Source of the DNA: Escherichia phage Ec_Makalu_003
DNA: 64,000 nucleotides
Sequence record: MN882349.1
Direction: 5' to 3' (one strand)
In this document: one piece after another, positions 325-61,772 of the stretch
Position numbering within the stretch: position 1 is the first letter of the stretch
Layout: the number at the start of each line of letters is the position of its first letter
Program-made: the position numbers and the translations under genes
Notes under the pieces: generated by a model
Seen by the model: only the letters and a program-made list of their open reading frames with translations
Told to the model about the DNA's origin: nothing
The model's database searches: none

Positions 325-879
325 ATGCTCTTTTCTTTCTTCCCTGCCATAGAATACAACGGCAAGATGATTACTGACATTGTGCGCAATTACCGCGCAT
401 ATTTCAACGCAATAATTTCTGATTATAACATACAAACATATTACATTCAAGGTAGTCCACGACCGGAACAAGTTGCATATGAAGTATACGGAAACCAGCA
501 ACTTTATTGGATCTTGCTGATGCTTAATGACGTATACGATCCGTTTCATGACTGGATCACCGATCAAGAGACAGCATATGAATCAGCCGAACAACGATAT
601 GCAAATGTAGGAGGAAATCAAGTATTATATCACGTTGATATTGACGGAAACAAGTATTGGAATCTTACCGAATATCCGAAAGGGTCAAGCAATTGGTACG
701 ACAAAGGGGATATTCATCACCGTCATTTGCAGTTTCATGGTGCACTGTCGGCTGTAGACACACTGGAAGATGCGATCCTCCGCAATGAGGAACGACGCAA
801 GATCAAGATCATAGATCCTACACAAATTAAACAATTTATTAACGCATTCATTCGAGAAATGGAAAAGGCTGATGTGTAA
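325..879 (+). CDS. 53: baseplate wedge protein gp53
   Basis: 184 aa; N-terminus MLFSFFPAIEY and YYIQGSPRPE, LYWILLM, NVGGNQ, KIKII segments match recalled T4 gp53 (196 aa); SD GAGGGTG; position before gene 5. Confidence 0.85.
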   Translation: MLFSFFPAIEYNGKMITDIVRNYRAYFNAIISDYNIQTYYIQGSPRPEQVAYEVYGNQQLYWILLMLNDVYDPFHDWITDQETAYESAEQRYANVGGNQVLYHVDIDGNKYWNLTEYPKGSSNWYDKGDIHHRHLQFHGALSAVDTLEDAILRNEERRKIKIIDPTQIKQFINAFIREMEKADV

Positions 880-48242: not shown

Positions 48243-48274
48243 AAGGCGGGGGACAATCCCCCGCCTTTTTATTT
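48243..48274 (+). terminator. rho-independent terminator after gene 54
   Basis: Hairpin GGCGGGGG-ACAA-TCCCCCGCC followed by TTTTTATTTT; sits between convergent genes. Confidence 0.75.
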
Positions 48275-48754
48275 TGCTAAATCATTGCAATATTTTAGTG
48301 CCTTAGTTTGAAACTCTGCGCTGTTAAGTTCTTCATAACGGTCATAATCACCGTTTAATGCTGCCTTTCTTGCTTCTTGTTCTATCTGCATGTCAGACAT
48401 GATAATACAACGATCCCGCGATTTCATCTTCTCAAGTTGTATAGACTCTTCTTGTTGCTTGCGCAATTCTTCTTGATGCTTCTTTTCTTCTCGTGCTTTC
48501 TCTTCCCGCGCTTCTTTGATTGCATCTTTGAACATCTGCGTTTGTGGTGCTAAACCAACTTTAACGCGATCCACGTCTCGACGTTCCATTTTAGAAATAA
48601 AACATGATTCGATCTGGTCATCGCTTGCATATGCTGCTTTACATTCACGAAGCAAGAAAACCGGATCTGATTTAGCATTCATCATAGCTTCCATGTTAGT
48701 ACAACCAGTAAGCATGAATGCAGCCGCAAGACCAATCAGTTTAATCATTTTCAT
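48269..48754 (-). CDS. putative lipoprotein
   Basis: 161 aa; signal peptide with lipobox LTGC (MKMIKLIGLAAAFMLTGC); charged coiled-coil-like segment; SD GAGGTG. Confidence 0.65.
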   Translation of the reverse strand: MKMIKLIGLAAAFMLTGCTNMEAMMNAKSDPVFLLRECKAAYASDDQIESCFISKMERRDVDRVKVGLAPQTQMFKDAIKEAREEKAREEKKHQEELRKQQEESIQLEKMKSRDRCIIMSDMQIEQEARKAALNGDYDRYEELNSAEFQTKALKYCNDLAK

Positions 48755-49575
48755 TTAGTCACCTCACCGAAAATTGTAAATTGTCTACGATTCTCATCGC
48801 CGAAAGATTCTACTACGTCGTTTACCTTGATGCAAGTCCCGCGCGGTAAAATTACTTCACATTCGCAAGGATTCCATGCAATAGACCCAACAACAAAACC
48901 TTTATGATCTTTTACGTCAATTACCCATGATACATTACAAGAATGTTGCATCTTTCCGGTCATTGATTCATATCGATTCTCACAATAAAGGCTAGTGCTG
49001 TTTGAAAGCCATCCTCCAAAGATGATCGGTGTCATGCTGGTCGATACAAAGTTTTTAAAGGTAAATTCCTTATCTTCAATAATACGCTCTATTGTCTGAA
49101 TGTCAAGATGTTGACCGCGATAAAGAGTACCGTTTAACTTTTCGGTTTTATCCATGACACAATCCATCAAATCGACAATCTCTGATATCTCATCGGTCAT
49201 GTCTTCTTCCCCTAAGAGAGCACCATTTACCCATTCGTATTGTTCAGACACATAATCGCAGATTGCATTATATTCTGCTGGGGTTATGTTGTTATGTTTG
49301 TAATGTTTGAATACATTATCTCCAAAATCTTCGGAATGTACTTCATACATCACATTAATGATTTTCTTGACAAATCCATAATCTTGCGTTTCTCGCTCAA
49401 GGAAACGGATAACTTTCACGTAATCATCAAAGTTAATATGATCGCTGATCATTTCAGTGATCATGTAACCATTAATCCCCTCAATGCCATATGTTTCGAT
49501 GTAATTATCCATACGTTCCATCATTGATTCGCGTGATTCTTCGGAAAGGCGAAAATCCTGTAATTTCTTGAACAT
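48751..49575 (-). CDS. ADP-ribosyltransferase, Alt-like paralog
   Basis: 274 aa; R-S-E motifs (LYRGQ, FVSTSMTPIIFGGW, ECEVILPRG) parallel those in the Alt C-terminus. Confidence 0.7.
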   Translation of the reverse strand: MFKKLQDFRLSEESRESMMERMDNYIETYGIEGINGYMITEMISDHINFDDYVKVIRFLERETQDYGFVKKIINVMYEVHSEDFGDNVFKHYKHNNITPAEYNAICDYVSEQYEWVNGALLGEEDMTDEISEIVDLMDCVMDKTEKLNGTLYRGQHLDIQTIERIIEDKEFTFKNFVSTSMTPIIFGGWLSNSTSLYCENRYESMTGKMQHSCNVSWVIDVKDHKGFVVGSIAWNPCECEVILPRGTCIKVNDVVESFGDENRRQFTIFGEVTK

Positions 49576-49653: not shown

Positions 49654-51705
49654 TTACATTTTAAATTTATCCGGCATAGCGTCTACAGACACAAGATCAG
49701 CGATAAGCTGACGTAGAGTTGCCTTATCTGCTTTCTTACGTTCGGTTTTAGCTTCGGTAATGAAGCTGGAGAAAGACAGGTCAGAAGCAGGTTTAACAAC
49801 ACCTTCACGGATGAATGCATCACCGTCCGCGATCATCTCACCAGATTCTTGTAATGCTGCCAGTTCATTTTTGTTCATAATATGTGCCTCAATGTAATAA
49901 GTTTCTTGTGAATCCGTCGATGCCGTAGCACGAGTTACCGTATCAAAGGATAACACAACACCGCGAGGAAGTAAAATCTCGCATTCTTTGTAAGCAAATG
50001 CTTTGTTACCTACTGGCAATACAGGGATGTTTTCCGCGCCAGCAATGGAGAAAGCAACATTAGCGCCACCTTCACCGCGAGATCCAGCCATAGAATCAAC
50101 ACCAGCAACGGCACTAGCCACGTTTGCATTCCATCCACCAAAAATATTAGGTGCAAGGGAAGTGCTCACATAGTTTTTAAAGTAAAACGCTTTTTGCTTA
50201 CGTGCAGTTTCCCACATTTGAGAACGGAAGTCCATACCACGATACAAGATAGTACCTGGATCAAGTTTAACACCATAGTTAGCAAATGCGTTATCCAGTG
50301 CATCACACATCTTGACCAATTCTTCTGGGTCTGCGATGCCTTCAAACTCTTCCAGCTTACGGTCGGTTAGGAAGTTGTTCATATTGATGTATGCTGCATC
50401 CGCATATTCGCTCAACACAAAACCTTCCGCGCCAGGCAGATCAAGATCAATATCTGCCATCATTTCACCCATGTTGCTAGCAATTGCTTCAAACATACCG
50501 GAAGCAACATTACGCAGGGCATCGGTTTTAATCTGCGTGATGTGACTACGCAGCATTTCAGCTTTTACATCTGCTGGCATAGACTGGTCGACGCGATCCA
50601 TTGCCAGGGCGGTGATCTTGTTTTCGAATACTTCCTCGCTCATGATTTCTTTTAAGCGTTTGATTGATGCTGCGATAACTTCCGCAGACAACGGATCATA
50701 TTGATCCTGAACTTTTACCAGTTCGCTTACTGCATATTTTGCATCGGCTTCGCTTTCAAAAATAGTACGCATGAAACCATAGCGAGTGATAATATCACTT
50801 GTCCAGTCATTCAGAGAACGGGCGGTTGAACGTTCTAAGGCTTGACGGTCAATCAGAGTATTAAACTGTTTCTTAGGTTCTGCTTCGGTGATATCTTCTT
50901 CCGGTTTAAGATTAATTTTTTCTGGATGATTCACATAGTCGCTGTTATAGGTCGCTTGAGTTTTCAGCATTTCTTCTTTAGTCAAACGAGATTTAGCCGC
51001 TACGCGTTGTTCTGCTTCCGCGTTTCGTTCTTCTTCCGACACAAGACTAGCCGCATACGCCTCATCTTTAGTCAGAGATTCACCAGTAGCCTTAGATACC
51101 CAGCGATCACCTAAATCACTTTCTACTTTAGTGAACAGGGATTCATCGAGTTTAATCCCTTTAATCTTATCAATCGCCATCCCGCGACGTTTGACAACAA
51201 CTAAAGCGATCTTTTTGCTGGTCATTACTTCCTGCTGGAATACTTCAAACTTCGGTGTACGACGCACCAAACGCTCTATAACGCGCTTAACCAGTTCGGT
51301 CTTACCTTTCATGCGGGATACGTTAAAACGGAACATAACAGCGTCTAATTGCGCTTTACGGGCTGTTTCCATGACCACATCAAAAGCACTTGACATAACT
51401 GCAATCGGGTTATCTCCTAGACCATTTTTAAGCTGTACAATACGACCGCTTTTGTTCATTTCGCACAGTACAACATGTGCGGTCTTGTCACCCATACGAA
51501 TGATTTTAGGTGTTTTGTTGGTGAAGTTACAAAGACGGACAATCACATCTTTATCGCGTGTCTGTACTGCAAAAAGCTGTTTAGGATTCTGCTTAGGCTT
51601 TAAGCACTGTACCGGAGCAATACTGCCAAAGTTTTCTTCCTCTTCCGTCAACAGCCATTTCTCGAAAGATTCAATCATTAGATCGTCGATTTCTAAGTTA
51701 AACAT
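49654..51705 (-). CDS. alt: ADP-ribosyltransferase Alt
   Basis: 683 aa (T4 Alt 682 aa); C-terminal domain with ILYRGMD, NYVSTSLAPNIFGGW, ECEILLPRG. Confidence 0.85.
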   Translation of the reverse strand: MFNLEIDDLMIESFEKWLLTEEEENFGSIAPVQCLKPKQNPKQLFAVQTRDKDVIVRLCNFTNKTPKIIRMGDKTAHVVLCEMNKSGRIVQLKNGLGDNPIAVMSSAFDVVMETARKAQLDAVMFRFNVSRMKGKTELVKRVIERLVRRTPKFEVFQQEVMTSKKIALVVVKRRGMAIDKIKGIKLDESLFTKVESDLGDRWVSKATGESLTKDEAYAASLVSEEERNAEAEQRVAAKSRLTKEEMLKTQATYNSDYVNHPEKINLKPEEDITEAEPKKQFNTLIDRQALERSTARSLNDWTSDIITRYGFMRTIFESEADAKYAVSELVKVQDQYDPLSAEVIAASIKRLKEIMSEEVFENKITALAMDRVDQSMPADVKAEMLRSHITQIKTDALRNVASGMFEAIASNMGEMMADIDLDLPGAEGFVLSEYADAAYINMNNFLTDRKLEEFEGIADPEELVKMCDALDNAFANYGVKLDPGTILYRGMDFRSQMWETARKQKAFYFKNYVSTSLAPNIFGGWNANVASAVAGVDSMAGSRGEGGANVAFSIAGAENIPVLPVGNKAFAYKECEILLPRGVVLSFDTVTRATASTDSQETYYIEAHIMNKNELAALQESGEMIADGDAFIREGVVKPASDLSFSSFITEAKTERKKADKATLRQLIADLVSVDAMPDKFKM

Positions 51706-52304: not shown

Positions 52305-52823
52305 TTAGTTATTTTTTAATTGCTCATCTTGCAATAATGCAATCACATGCTGGCGATGTTCTTCCGATTGAGGAACACCGAAAAAGTTTGTTTTGTAGAA
52401 ATACTCTAATCGGTCTTCTCGTGTGCTCTCTTCCATCATGATCGCGGGTAGTCCAAGATTTCGGAAACGTCGCTTTTCTGCTGGCGTAAAATCACTGTAA
52501 TACAACATAGAATCATCATTACCAGCAATGCTAAACTCATCCTTCATAAAGGAGAATATTGCGTTTAAACGCTGTTTACCGTCCACGATTTCGATCTCAT
52601 AGCGAGAGCCATCATCAATCTTAGCCATTGCGATAGCACCAACCGGAAAATCATTAATCAGGTTTTCGATAAACATACGTTTGTTTTCGGTGTCCCATAC
52701 CAAAGGACGCTGATAATCTGGGTTCATGTTGATATAGCCATCTTCTAACCACGCCTCATAAACAGAGATGACAAAGTTTTTAGTATTGGTATAGTAACGG
52801 CGTTTAGGCGTTAAACGGTTCAT
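52305..52823 (-). CDS. DUF262-like (ParB/Srx-fold) protein
   Basis: 172 aa from ATG 52823 (SD AGGAG); DYQRPLVW and VDGKQRL resemble the DUF262 N-terminal motifs (DGQQR type); last gene of a five-gene operon. Confidence 0.55.
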   Translation of the reverse strand: MNRLTPKRRYYTNTKNFVISVYEAWLEDGYINMNPDYQRPLVWDTENKRMFIENLINDFPVGAIAMAKIDDGSRYEIEIVDGKQRLNAIFSFMKDEFSIAGNDDSMLYYSDFTPAEKRRFRNLGLPAIMMEESTREDRLEYFYKTNFFGVPQSEEHRQHVIALLQDEQLKNN

Positions 52824-52824
52824 G

Positions 52825-53157
52825 TTATAGTCTCCTGAATGGATCATCACGTAAATCAATATCTTTTAAGAACTCATCCCATGAATGGCGGATAATGTTC
52901 TTAATTCTCCAGATAAGCGCAGGGATTGAACGCTCTCCCATCTGGAAGTAAGGATCATATGATCCATATGCCCAATATGCTACTACAATTCCACAATCGG
53001 CGCAATAATATTCTATTTCACTTGCTGGCGACCAAAGTCCATCAATATGATCACGGATCTTGCTTTCGATGTTATGGCTATGGCAATCAGGGCAACGGAT
53101 GCAATGACCTTGTTTATCGTAATTTGACGTTAGCGAATACTTAAACAATCTCATCAT
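52825..53157 (-). CDS. zinc-ribbon protein
   Basis: 110 aa; CIRCPDC ... CADCG (CxxC...CxxC); start overlaps upstream stop. Confidence 0.55.
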   Translation of the reverse strand: MMRLFKYSLTSNYDKQGHCIRCPDCHSHNIESKIRDHIDGLWSPASEIEYYCADCGIVVAYWAYGSYDPYFQMGERSIPALIWRIKNIIRHSWDEFLKDIDLRDDPFRRL

Positions 53158-53870
53158 AGATCCTTATTGGCTTCAAATACTGCCTTTGCGAATCCTCGCG
53201 GGGTAAGTGACCTGATAGTCTTTGTTCTGGTTCCTTTCCCGCCTAGCTTAGAATGCTGTTTACTGTACCCTTTATTAATCTGCAACGGTTTCTTTTCTGG
53301 CATTATAAAGCCTTGTCCGGTCCATAAGCAAGTCTTTTTCGGGTACATATCACGGGCGGCAATATACTCAGGAAACGTAGGATGCTTATCATCTTCCGGC
53401 AAATAACCGCCATATTCCCACGGATGGAACATGTAATCAGGCTTACGCCACATGCTAGAGATAACGCTTACAGGATTCTCTATCATGTAGGGAACTCCTA
53501 GCCATTCACCCAAATAAGCGGTTATTTTAGCTGCCCTTACATCATGAACTTGAATTAATGGTCCTTGTTCTCGTTTCTTTCGTTCAAAGTGCGCAGCGCC
53601 ACTAACAGCTAAATTGGTGCATGGTGGGAATGCAAAGATAATATCCGGTTTCCCCCATTCAAGGTCCATTGCTCTTTCCAGCCAATTTAAATCAATCCAT
53701 GTGTTTACATATGTAATGTTTGGATGTTCAAATCTGGTATTATATTTTTTGTATGTACCGTGGTCGCCATCGTCAGCATTAAAGCAGATCACCTTATGAC
53801 CTGCTTTAGCCCATTCTAACCCCATTATCCCCGATCCGTCAAAGTTGCAGAATATTAATTTTTGTTTCAT
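53154..53870 (-). CDS. C5-cytosine DNA methyltransferase-like protein (compact)
   Basis: 238 aa; motif I-like LIFCNFDGSGIMGLEWAKAGHKVICFNADD, motif IV-like IIFAFPPCTNLAVSG (Pro-Cys), motif VI-like MIENP; region after motif VI too short for a typical target-recognition domain. Confidence 0.55.
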   Translation of the reverse strand: MKQKLIFCNFDGSGIMGLEWAKAGHKVICFNADDGDHGTYKKYNTRFEHPNITYVNTWIDLNWLERAMDLEWGKPDIIFAFPPCTNLAVSGAAHFERKKREQGPLIQVHDVRAAKITAYLGEWLGVPYMIENPVSVISSMWRKPDYMFHPWEYGGYLPEDDKHPTFPEYIAARDMYPKKTCLWTGQGFIMPEKKPLQINKGYSKQHSKLGGKGTRTKTIRSLTPRGFAKAVFEANKDL

Positions 53871-59114: not shown

Positions 59115-59591
59115 TTATTTTTCTTGATGCTCGCGCTCGTACTTTTCGAAATAAAATTCTACTGGCTGATCGTGGATTGAAAGCAAGCCAAAGCGTTTAG
59201 CCGCACGTAATCCCATGTTACGTTGAATGTACTTCTGGAAGTTCTCGCGTATACACTTACGCCAGTATTCTAAGCCCATACAGCTTTTGTAAAGATTGCA
59301 TTGCACACAAGCCGGATTCATGTTGTCAAGTATATCGTGCTCCGGTTTATGCATTCCTACAACCTTATACTTCCACGATCCATCATCATTACGGGCAATT
59401 CGTCCATTTTCATCATAGACTACTTTTGAGCGTCGCAATACTGGTTTGATGTGGTCTGCGTGCCAGCGATCCCCTAGTTCCTCGCCACAATAGGCACAAC
59501 GCCCACCGTATTTCATTTTCAGGATCTGGCGTTGCTCTTTCTTTGACAATTTTTTAGGTTTAGGGGCTTTCGCCCCTTCATTATCACACAT
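59115..59591 (-). CDS. HNH endonuclease
   Basis: 158 aa; CAYCGEEL ... WHADHIKPV ... NMNPACVQCN; start overlaps the 3' end of DNA ligase gene 30. Confidence 0.75.
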   Translation of the reverse strand: MCDNEGAKAPKPKKLSKKEQRQILKMKYGGRCAYCGEELGDRWHADHIKPVLRRSKVVYDENGRIARNDDGSWKYKVVGMHKPEHDILDNMNPACVQCNLYKSCMGLEYWRKCIRENFQKYIQRNMGLRAAKRFGLLSIHDQPVEFYFEKYEREHQEK

Positions 59592-61080
59592 CGAATACCT
59601 CTTTTACTGTATTTGCAGTGGTCTTGTCGTAGCGAATACGTTTGATGATTGGGAGAAATAAAGAGAACTCCGGTTCATCTTCTTTACGTGATTTGCTGCG
59701 GATATATCCGTTGCATGTCATCTCAATGACTTTTCCGATCAGGTTATGACGGTCAGCCCATAACATTTCTCGGTCGAGTTCATTTCGACGATCGAACGGA
59801 ATTACACGTTCAATACCATCATCATCTTTTTCGGTTGTGGTGTCGGTCAATCCCGATCCGGTGTTAGTCGTCATTCGTCCGCACGCACTACGGACAGTAA
59901 AACCGCCTACCTTGTTAGGATCTTTACTATGCGGATATACATCAACAATTTCCGCGTCGAAGTCAATCACTTCTTTAAATTTAACCTGATCTTTACTGCG
60001 ACGATCTTCAAATACACCATGTAAATTTTTAAGGATAATACCTTCTAATCCCATGTTGACATAACGATGATATACTTCGCGAGCTTCATCGATATTGTTA
60101 ACTACAGTGTTTTCGATTATCTGAACACGAGGATCGTTAAGTTCTTCAACAATCTGTTTTAGTTCTTCGAATCGATCTTTATATTGCTTCGTTGCTTTCT
60201 CGTTTCCGTAATACACATCACGGTCGATAACATCCCAGACAGTGTAAACAATACATTGGGCTTCTTCTTTTGGAATAGTTCCTTTCAGTGATTTGTTGAG
60301 GATACCATTTCCGGTCTGACGGTCTGCAACAACGGATTCTTTCACTGCTTCCGCTACTGGCGTTAATGGCATTTCCTCTTCTTCAAATATCCATGATAGA
60401 GTACCATCATAAACGCTCTCAACGAAGTTCTGCGCTGGTGTTTGAGAAAGGGTAGGCATATATACCAACTCACCATCTAAAACAATTCCACGGCCTCGTA
60501 GACGCTCTAAAACAGCAAACAAATCATCCAGCCCCTGATAGGTATTACCTGAACGGGTATAGATTGCTAATGTTTCTCCGTCAATATCAGCCATACCACG
60601 AGCGCCATCGCTTTTAAGTTGTGCATACGCCGGATATTTGATATTGGCAATAGTCTTATCAGAACATGACGATGCAAGGTGGCACGGCTGCTGAGGAATC
60701 AGCTTCTTCCATACCTTGTTTGCGGTGGTAGCGGAACAACCGCATTCCAGATCACGATTCAGGACCATCATTGCAACTTTAGCATCATCTTCTGACAAGC
60801 AAGTCAGAGTATCGGTAACTAGCTGTAATGCAGCATTACCAGTTACTTGACGCGTGGCAAGTTTATTTTTAAAGACCTGTAATGCACCGGATAAAGACAA
60901 TACAGACGAATAGCGAGACGGTTTATCGTATTTCTTTACGCCAAACGTAACCTGCTTGCAATATGCCAGATAAAAGCATTCTTTCAGCGTTTCATTGCTT
61001 GCAGATTCTTTCAGGATCTTTTCTTTCAGCGATGTTTTGTCAGTGGCTGCAAGCTGATTAATGATATTAAGAATTGACAT
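59584..61080 (-). CDS. 30: ATP-dependent DNA ligase gp30
   Basis: 498 aa from ATG 61080 (track uses upstream GTG 61086); motif I KYPAYAQLKSDGARG; TGNAA, MVLNRDLECG, ANKVWKKLIPQQP match recalled T4 DNA ligase. Confidence 0.9.
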   Translation of the reverse strand: MSILNIINQLAATDKTSLKEKILKESASNETLKECFYLAYCKQVTFGVKKYDKPSRYSSVLSLSGALQVFKNKLATRQVTGNAALQLVTDTLTCLSEDDAKVAMMVLNRDLECGCSATTANKVWKKLIPQQPCHLASSCSDKTIANIKYPAYAQLKSDGARGMADIDGETLAIYTRSGNTYQGLDDLFAVLERLRGRGIVLDGELVYMPTLSQTPAQNFVESVYDGTLSWIFEEEEMPLTPVAEAVKESVVADRQTGNGILNKSLKGTIPKEEAQCIVYTVWDVIDRDVYYGNEKATKQYKDRFEELKQIVEELNDPRVQIIENTVVNNIDEAREVYHRYVNMGLEGIILKNLHGVFEDRRSKDQVKFKEVIDFDAEIVDVYPHSKDPNKVGGFTVRSACGRMTTNTGSGLTDTTTEKDDDGIERVIPFDRRNELDREMLWADRHNLIGKVIEMTCNGYIRSKSRKEDEPEFSLFLPIIKRIRYDKTTANTVKEVFDV

Positions 61081-61546
61081 TTTCACCTCGTTTTGTTAAA
61101 CGTTCACGAATATCATTTAGGATACTACAAAATTCCGATTCGGTCAATATGGTCTTTAACGGATCAGTTCCACCTATGCTATGACGCAATTTCTTATTTC
61201 CGGTAGCGAGCAATGCTTTACAAAAATCTGGGTTATTTCGTGCCATCGTAACAAATGCCAGATGTACCAGTCTGTAATAATGCTCACTCATTCGATGAAT
61301 CGGGCGACCCTGAAAATATAGCATGTGATTCTCTATCTTTTCAGTCCTTCCGGTTCTTTTTGCTTTGCAGCCGTGCATCAAAAAGATTTCTCTTTGTCTC
61401 TGAGGGTTCTTAAATCTTAGCCCCTGTAAAAATCCTTCTGTGCTGTTAATATCGCAACCAAATAGACGGAATGGCCTTTTATTGAAATTACTCAACTCGC
61501 CAGATGGATAAGGTCCACCCGCATAGATATCAATTTCAGAAGTCAT
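61067..61546 (-). CDS. NADAR (YbiA-like) domain protein
   Basis: 159 aa; LSNF, INSTEGFLQGLRF, AKRTGR, CKALLATGNKKL...ILNDIRERL parallel the YbiA/NADAR pattern (FSNF, TSEHYFQAQKF, GR, ALLLAT...). Confidence 0.6.
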   Translation of the reverse strand: MTSEIDIYAGGPYPSGELSNFNKRPFRLFGCDINSTEGFLQGLRFKNPQRQREIFLMHGCKAKRTGRTEKIENHMLYFQGRPIHRMSEHYYRLVHLAFVTMARNNPDFCKALLATGNKKLRHSIGGTDPLKTILTESEFCSILNDIRERLTKRGENVNS

Positions 61547-61700
61547 TGAAACTAATCTCGCTAATCAGAGAGAACGGATCATAATCGTCATGAGGAATAT
61601 CGATAGTAATCGAGTGAGGATTTACCCATACACCAAACTGGTCTTCTTCGGTGAATACTTCGGTATGGATTTCGTGGATGTTTACATTCATAGTTTTCAT
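61536..61700 (-). CDS. hypothetical small protein (54 aa)
   Basis: Minus-strand ORF between gene 31 and the NADAR gene, stop overlapping the NADAR start; below track cut-off. Confidence 0.4.
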   Translation of the reverse strand: MKTMNVNIHEIHTEVFTEEDQFGVWVNPHSITIDIPHDDYDPFSLISEISFNDF

Positions 61701-61743: not shown

Positions 61744-61772
61744 CCAAAATATAGGCGGGATTATTTCCCGCC
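61744..61772 (-). terminator. terminator-like hairpin after gene 31 (minus strand)
   Basis: Hairpin GGCGGGAAATAATCCCGCC followed by a T-rich run on the minus strand. Confidence 0.5.

Follow-up and report, generated by a model that had tools for sequence, protein, structure and literature searches.

The DNA analyzed here is a 64,000-nucleotide stretch of Escherichia phage Ec_Makalu_003 (MN882349.1), which we call the window, and the gene in question occupies positions 61067–61546 of its minus strand (coordinates include the stop codon). This gene starts with ATG, encodes a 159-residue protein, and belongs to the gp30.3 family of phage NADAR proteins; we refer to it as adfN-like, or adfN for short, after T4 gp30.3/AdfN. 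An earlier interpretation based on the letters alone (the sequence-only reading) had described a 159-residue open reading frame (ORF) with NADAR motifs, all of which are present exactly as it quoted them: L18-S-N-F21, S35-T-E-G-F-L-Q-G-L-R-F45, K63-R-T-G-R67, and A111-L-L-A-T-G116. Its placement of the gene next to DNA ligase was also borne out, as the gene for an ATP-dependent DNA ligase (gene 30; 59584–61080, minus strand; PF01068 and phrog_114) lies directly downstream, with an ATG at 61080 and a 14-nucleotide overlap with the 3′ end of adfN (61067–61080, minus strand) that is annotated alike in phage GEC-3S. The sequence GAGGTGAAAATG in the 3′ end of adfN is the ligase ribosome-binding site (Shine-Dalgarno GAGGTG). 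At the other end, a 54-residue ORF called 31.-1 (RB49 gp31.-1; phrog_15277; 61536–61700, minus strand) overlaps the ATG of adfN by its final 11 nucleotides and is probably translationally coupled to it. The adfN region is 99.4% identical to that of Escherichia phage Ec_Makalu_002 and 96–98% identical to those of GEC-3S and other Krischvirus (RB49-like) phages, and the gene is labeled 'hypothetical protein' in Ec_Makalu_002, GEC-3S, and other Krischvirus relatives.

The best profile match of the 159-residue protein was Pfam PF08010, 'Bacteriophage protein GP30.3' (Phage_30_3), with E = 5e-39 and a score of 133.6 bits (cut-off 36); residues 13–148 aligned with positions 2–138 of the 138-position profile. 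The protein also matched phrog_652 (E = 2e-45), and tblastn found homologues in 1,509 phage records, nearly all of them T4-like. Identity to T4 gp30.3 is 38.4% over T4 residues 2–152. A direct match to the Pfam NADAR profile PF08719 was sub-threshold (E = 0.032; 14.9 bits versus a cut-off of 35.1), and a scan of NCBIfam gave only a weak match to 'NADAR family anti-phage protein' (E = 0.017); 62 of 100 members of the gp30.3 family, however, match Pfam NADAR, the best at E = 1e-6. The AlphaFold2 model predicted from an alignment of 100 sequences was of very high confidence (predicted local distance difference test score 95, predicted template modeling score 0.90) and has the NADAR (YbiA) fold, with a YbiA structure among the top matches in two fold searches, and its fold matches are the same three structures reported for T4 gp30.3. 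In a profile search of PDB sequences only YbiA was returned (E = 0.31). NADAR membership therefore rests on the link through the gp30.3 family and on the fold rather than on a direct NADAR profile match. We conclude that the protein is a full-length orthologue of T4 gp30.3/AdfN with a NADAR fold. Two other matches were set aside: D-alanyl carrier protein ligase 7vhv, found in a single-sequence PDB search (E = 4e-4), was spurious and unsupported by either fold search, and weak matches to GidB in 42 of the 100 family members were taken as noise.

The active-site residues of phage NADARs are conserved. Glu37 (codon GAA, 61436–61438, minus strand) corresponds to the catalytic E36 of T4 AdfN, E88 of the E. 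coli C7 NADAR, and E43 of PnNADAR, and was invariant in all 133 aligned homologues. His122 (codon CAT, 61181–61183, minus strand), likewise invariant (134 of 134), stands in the last β-strand, at the position of Glu in YbiA and of Asp in DarG1, and this replacement defines the phage NADARs (PMC11543638; PMC11125620). The label 'YbiA-like' needs correcting: with this His the protein belongs to the phage gp30.3 subfamily, and it differs from YbiA-type NADARs (PF08719; E. coli YbiA, PDB 2B3W; PnNADAR, PDB 8BAU) in its identity of ~20% as well as in its sub-threshold Pfam score. A YbiA-type housekeeping N-glycosidase that clears reactive intermediates of the riboflavin pathway would fit the presence of YbiA among the top fold matches, but the His in place of the defining last-strand Glu, the Pfam score, the phage-specific distribution of the family, and the defense-specific phenotype of the T4 member make such a role extremely unlikely. 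DarG1 and the DarT1-associated NADAR antitoxins (BC4488 family; E. coli C7; G. lovleyi NADAR, PDB 8BAT) carry a catalytic last-strand Asp where the window protein has His. Unlike DarG1, the window protein consists of the core domain only, lacks an N-terminal extension, gave no PADLOC match, and is encoded beside 31.-1 and ligase rather than beside a DarT toxin; as an orphan protein of a lytic phage, it would be used against a defense instead of serving as its antitoxin.

The C-terminal α-helix of the model (residues 136–152; 61091–61141, minus strand) is intact, and the alignment reaches the last T4 residue (152). Its counterpart is lost in the inactive AdfN of RB69, a DarTG1-sensitive phage in which a frameshift (15-residue truncation) removes the helix (PMC11257639). 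The gene is under purifying selection: compared with GEC-3S, 16 differences were synonymous and 3 non-synonymous, giving a ratio of non-synonymous to synonymous substitution rates (dN/dS) of 0.045, and compared with a relative of 69% identity whose gene order matches, the ratio was ~0.09–0.11, with dS saturated. Orthology, fold, the conserved Glu and His of the active site, the C-terminal helix, and purifying selection are thus directly supported by our analysis.

For T4 AdfN and other NADARs, function has been established experimentally. Schuller et al. (2023) found that NADARs hydrolyze the guanine-N2-ADP-ribose made by DarT1 (PMC11543638), and Cihlova et al. (2024) that T4 gp30.3 hydrolyzes guanine–ADP-ribose in vitro (PMC11125620). 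Johannesman et al. renamed gp30.3 AdfN (preprint PMC11257639; Nat Commun 2025, PMC11825919) and reported that it is necessary and sufficient for resistance of T4 and T2 to DarTG1 and that the E36A and K43A mutations abolish its function (PMC11825919). In a transposon screen described in the HIDEN-SEQ preprint, 30.3/adfN was conditionally essential only on DarTG1 hosts. As a side observation, the Methods of PMC11125620 list the T4 NADAR construct as 'gp30.3; residues 1-208', yet the T4 30.3 ORF has 152 residues; 208 residues is the length of gp61.2/AdfA, and the entry may be a typographical error or reflect another gene model.

Like T4 AdfN, the window protein is a minimal NADAR core without an N-terminal extension that aligns as a full-length orthologue; it has the Glu and His of the active site and a matching C-terminal helix, and its gene lies in a neighborhood upstream of gene 30 in a phage of E. 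coli. We therefore propose, with a probability of about 0.78, that this Krischvirus protein is orthologous to T4 gp30.3/AdfN and works as a minimal, single-domain NADAR ADP-ribosylglycohydrolase, undoing DarT1 damage on phage DNA. By analogy with the T4 orthologue and other NADARs, from which we infer its substrate, chemistry, and anti-DarTG1 role, the enzyme would most likely remove ADP-ribose from guanine in phage DNA to defeat DarT1-type defenses. Host DarT1-type toxins would attach ADP-ribose to guanine N2 of phage DNA and thereby block replication; the AdfN-like enzyme would bind the ADP-ribose with Arg44 placed where the diphosphate is held and with Glu37 and His122 flanking the distal ribose, and hydrolysis of the N-glycosidic bond would restore unmodified guanine and allow replication to continue. 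The target of the enzyme would thus be the damage and not the toxin. The sequence-only reading had proposed the same function, a NADAR hydrolase reversing DarT-mediated DNA ADP-ribosylation as an anti-defense measure, and the published function of the T4 orthologue supports it. That hypothesis is probably correct here, but it had already been demonstrated for the orthologue and is not new.

Several observations weigh against this proposal. The direct NADAR profile match was sub-threshold, a PADLOC scan matched nothing and gave no DarG hit, and sequence identity with the T4 protein that was tested is just 38%. Arg44 replaces a Lys that is essential in T4, where K43A is dead, and the engineered K95R variant of the E. 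coli C7 NADAR kept guanine–ADP-ribose hydrolysis in vitro and did not rescue cells from DarT1 toxicity (PMC11543638). T4 AdfN is fully effective only during T-even infection, so a T-even factor may be needed (PMC11825919), and several T-even genes are absent from Krischvirus. Finally, none of the literature searched pairs Krischvirus with DarTG, and the few papers naming both RB49 and DarTG report no test of a Krischvirus against DarTG.

One of these points, the residue at position 44 (codon AGA, 61415–61417, minus strand), is the sole feature that keeps the active site from being called fully canonical. It lies seven positions after the catalytic Glu, at the site of the phosphate-coordinating Lys (K43 in T4, K95 in E. 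coli C7, K50 in PnNADAR). Lys occupies this position in 130 of 134 aligned homologues, and within that alignment the window protein and the two relatives nearest to it are the only ones with Arg. In the 90%-identity cluster, 10 of 11 full-length sequences have Arg44 and one has Lys. Arg is likewise the residue in L008, the relative with 69% identity, and in PhaR5, an Acinetobacter phage whose protein is 50% identical; the AGA codon is common to the window, GEC-3S, and L008. T4, JS09, Yersinia phage MHG19, Aeromonas phage 31, and Cronobacter phage LPCS28 have Lys at the equivalent position. A further difference from T4 AdfN is a 7-residue C-terminal tail.

One explanation of Arg44 is that the window gene is a weakened or decaying copy, in which the Lys-to-Arg change crippled function in vivo and left Krischviruses sensitive to DarTG1 or protected in some other way. 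The failure of E. coli C7 K95R to rescue DarT1 toxicity is in line with this explanation, and RB69 shows that inactive alleles occur in nature. The strong purifying selection (dN/dS of 0.045, and about 0.09 at saturated dS), the full-length ORF in nearly all Krischvirus records, and the retention of Arg in lineages down to 50% identity nevertheless make decay unlikely. Because Arg44 has been held over the long term under purifying selection, we argue instead that Arg works in the Krischvirus/PhaR5 subclade.

Arg44 might also mark a shift from turnover to binding, with the protein acting as a non-catalytic binder of ADP-ribose that blocks an NAD-consuming defense. A phage NADAR that needs no enzymatic activity has reportedly been described by Carabias et al. 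2024 (Retron-Eco1), as the AdfN paper cites that work, and such a precedent, together with the replacement of Lys and the loss of in vivo antitoxin function in E. coli C7 K95R, would speak for a binder. However, the catalytic Glu37 and His122 are strictly conserved, K95R retains hydrolysis in vitro, and the presence of Lys in one 90%-identical relative indicates that Lys and Arg interchange within one functional clade; on this evidence a purely binding role is quite unlikely. A third possibility, which we regard as doubtful, is that the Arg44 subclade (Krischvirus and Acinetobacter T4-like phages) has a functionally shifted AdfN, for example with retuned substrate preference or binding, or one that acts independently of the putative T-even cofactor. 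Candidate shifts may include action on guanine–ADP-ribose in RNA, action on the product of another ADP-ribosyltransferase toxin, or tight binding of ADP-ribose.

The orthologue of T4 AdfN proposed here resides in a neighborhood that differs in part from that of T4 30.3: the window gene overlaps ligase, 30.1 and 30.2 being absent, and is preceded by the unrelated overlapping ORF 31.-1 rather than by 30.4. It is because 30.1 and 30.2 are missing that adfN abuts ligase. In other T4-like phages one to four ORFs intervene between 30.3 and 30 (T4, JS09, MHG19, LPCS28, and PhaR5), and in Aeromonas phage 31 the 30.3 gene is located elsewhere, among tRNA genes; for these reasons functional coupling to ligase was ruled out. 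De-ADP-ribosylation, moreover, leaves no nick for a ligase to seal. The position next to ligase, noted by the sequence-only reading, is real but reflects inherited T4-type gene order.

Genes on the minus strand are tightly packed in the order gene 31, terminator, 31.-1, adfN, ligase, and an HNH endonuclease gene. The intrinsic terminator (61754–61772, minus strand; also annotated in GEC-3S) follows gene 31 and lies upstream of the 31.-1/adfN/ligase block, and a promoter scan of the adfN block found promoter-like sites to be no commoner than in shuffled sequence. Upstream of and overlapping adfN, 31.-1 occurs throughout Krischviruses and in the 69%-identical relative. It lacks a T4 counterpart and has no similarity to any T4 30.x protein, and we therefore ruled it out as a T4 30.4 homologue or conserved partner. 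Unexpectedly, the 90%-identity protein cluster that holds the 159-residue protein also includes 31.-1, probably owing to fused gene calls in some genomes. The HNH endonuclease gene (59115–59591, minus strand; phrog_2118, E = 8e-55) shares 8 nucleotides with the ligase 3′ end. Over a 3.5-kb region, many Krischvirus records align in two pieces with ~395 extra bases, which points to an insertion/deletion polymorphism nearby.

Both ADP-ribosyltransferases (ARTs) announced by the sequence-only reading were found in the window, and both match PF03496: a 274-residue ART (48751–49575, minus strand; E = 1e-15) and an Alt-like ART of 683 residues (49654–51705, minus strand; E = 5.6e-9). The 274-residue ART gene lies directly downstream of alt and is followed by an overlapping ORF of 161 residues (48269–48754, minus strand) without a Pfam match. 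The GEC-3S genome, which is 97% identical, has a third annotated ART gene, modB, at another location. These genes raise the alternative, also put forward by the earlier reading, that the NADAR enzyme undoes or edits modifications made by the phage's own ARTs (Alt, the 274-residue ART, and ModB), such as ADP-ribosyl-arginine on host proteins or RNAylated proteins. The two ART genes in the window, modB in the genome, and an ART gene just beyond ligase at the locus of Acinetobacter phage PhaR5 are compatible with this alternative. In the literature searched, however, NADAR activity is reported only on base-linked ADP-ribose (on G, and on C for some families) in DNA or RNA. T4 possesses these ARTs as well, but it can do without adfN on K-12 and requires it only with DarTG1, and the window ART genes are 10–12 kb away in separate transcription units. 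We consequently found no support for this idea and regard it as very unlikely.

The genomic background of the proposed AdfN orthologue also differs from that of T4, in that Krischvirus has unmodified cytosine DNA, as reported for RB49 (PMC4041780), and no AdfA. By tblastn and annotation, GEC-3S contains none of gp42, beta-gt, and AdfA (gp61.2). In a lineage without an AdfA homologue, the adfN-like gene would be the only known anti-DarT1 factor. A 2024 preprint held that T4 AdfN prefers hydroxymethylated DNA, a claim withdrawn in the published version (PMC11825919), and T4-GT7, which is without DNA modifications, still depends on AdfN (PMC11825919). Because of this dependence, a requirement for hydroxymethylcytosine was dropped as a conflict with the unmodified DNA of Krischvirus. 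The proteins AdfN-Bas32 and AdfN-Bas60 of T5-like phages and Vequintavirinae are, like the window protein, phage-encoded orphan NADARs, and those two counter DarTG1; they were acquired independently, belong to other NADAR clades, and are autonomous, neutralizing DarT1 in uninfected cells.

Other observations concern ADP-ribosylation and DNA modification more broadly. In GEC-3S, BN201_0092 (405–857, minus strand, of sequence L004, outside the window), carries the annotation 'phosphatase' and lies near tk; it belongs to the macrodomain proteins (PF01661, E = 6e-7) and is probably the counterpart of T4 Tk.4/AdfM, an anti-DarTG2 factor. A 184-residue ORF in the window (52305–52859, minus strand) has an N-terminal GmrSD_N/DUF262 (ParB-like nuclease) domain (E = 5e-20), a type IV restriction enzyme domain that occurs here in a phage whose DNA is unmodified. 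The GEC-3S annotation includes three DNA methyltransferase genes (dam, BN201_0144, and BN201_0194); the window copy of BN201_0194 (53154–53870) had no Pfam match at E ≤ 0.01.

As a discovery the window protein is of low value, since publications from 2023 to 2025 cover the family, fold, chemistry, and anti-DarTG1 role, and the protein is an ordinary orthologue. Its 'hypothetical protein' entries in Krischvirus can nonetheless be re-annotated as AdfN-family NADAR ADP-ribosylglycohydrolases. If BN201_0092 is indeed the AdfM counterpart, the lineage would possess both NADAR and macrodomain de-ADP-ribosylases and no AdfA. Arg44 is a natural counterpart of engineered K95R, the mutant that separates in vitro activity from in vivo protection. 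Without AdfA, 30.1, 30.2, and the genes for hydroxymethylcytosine, Krischvirus offers a leaner background in which to ask why T4 AdfN is fully effective in T-even infections only, and if proteins of the Arg44 subclade need no T-even cofactor, comparison of gene content between Krischvirus and T-even phages would narrow the search for that cofactor.
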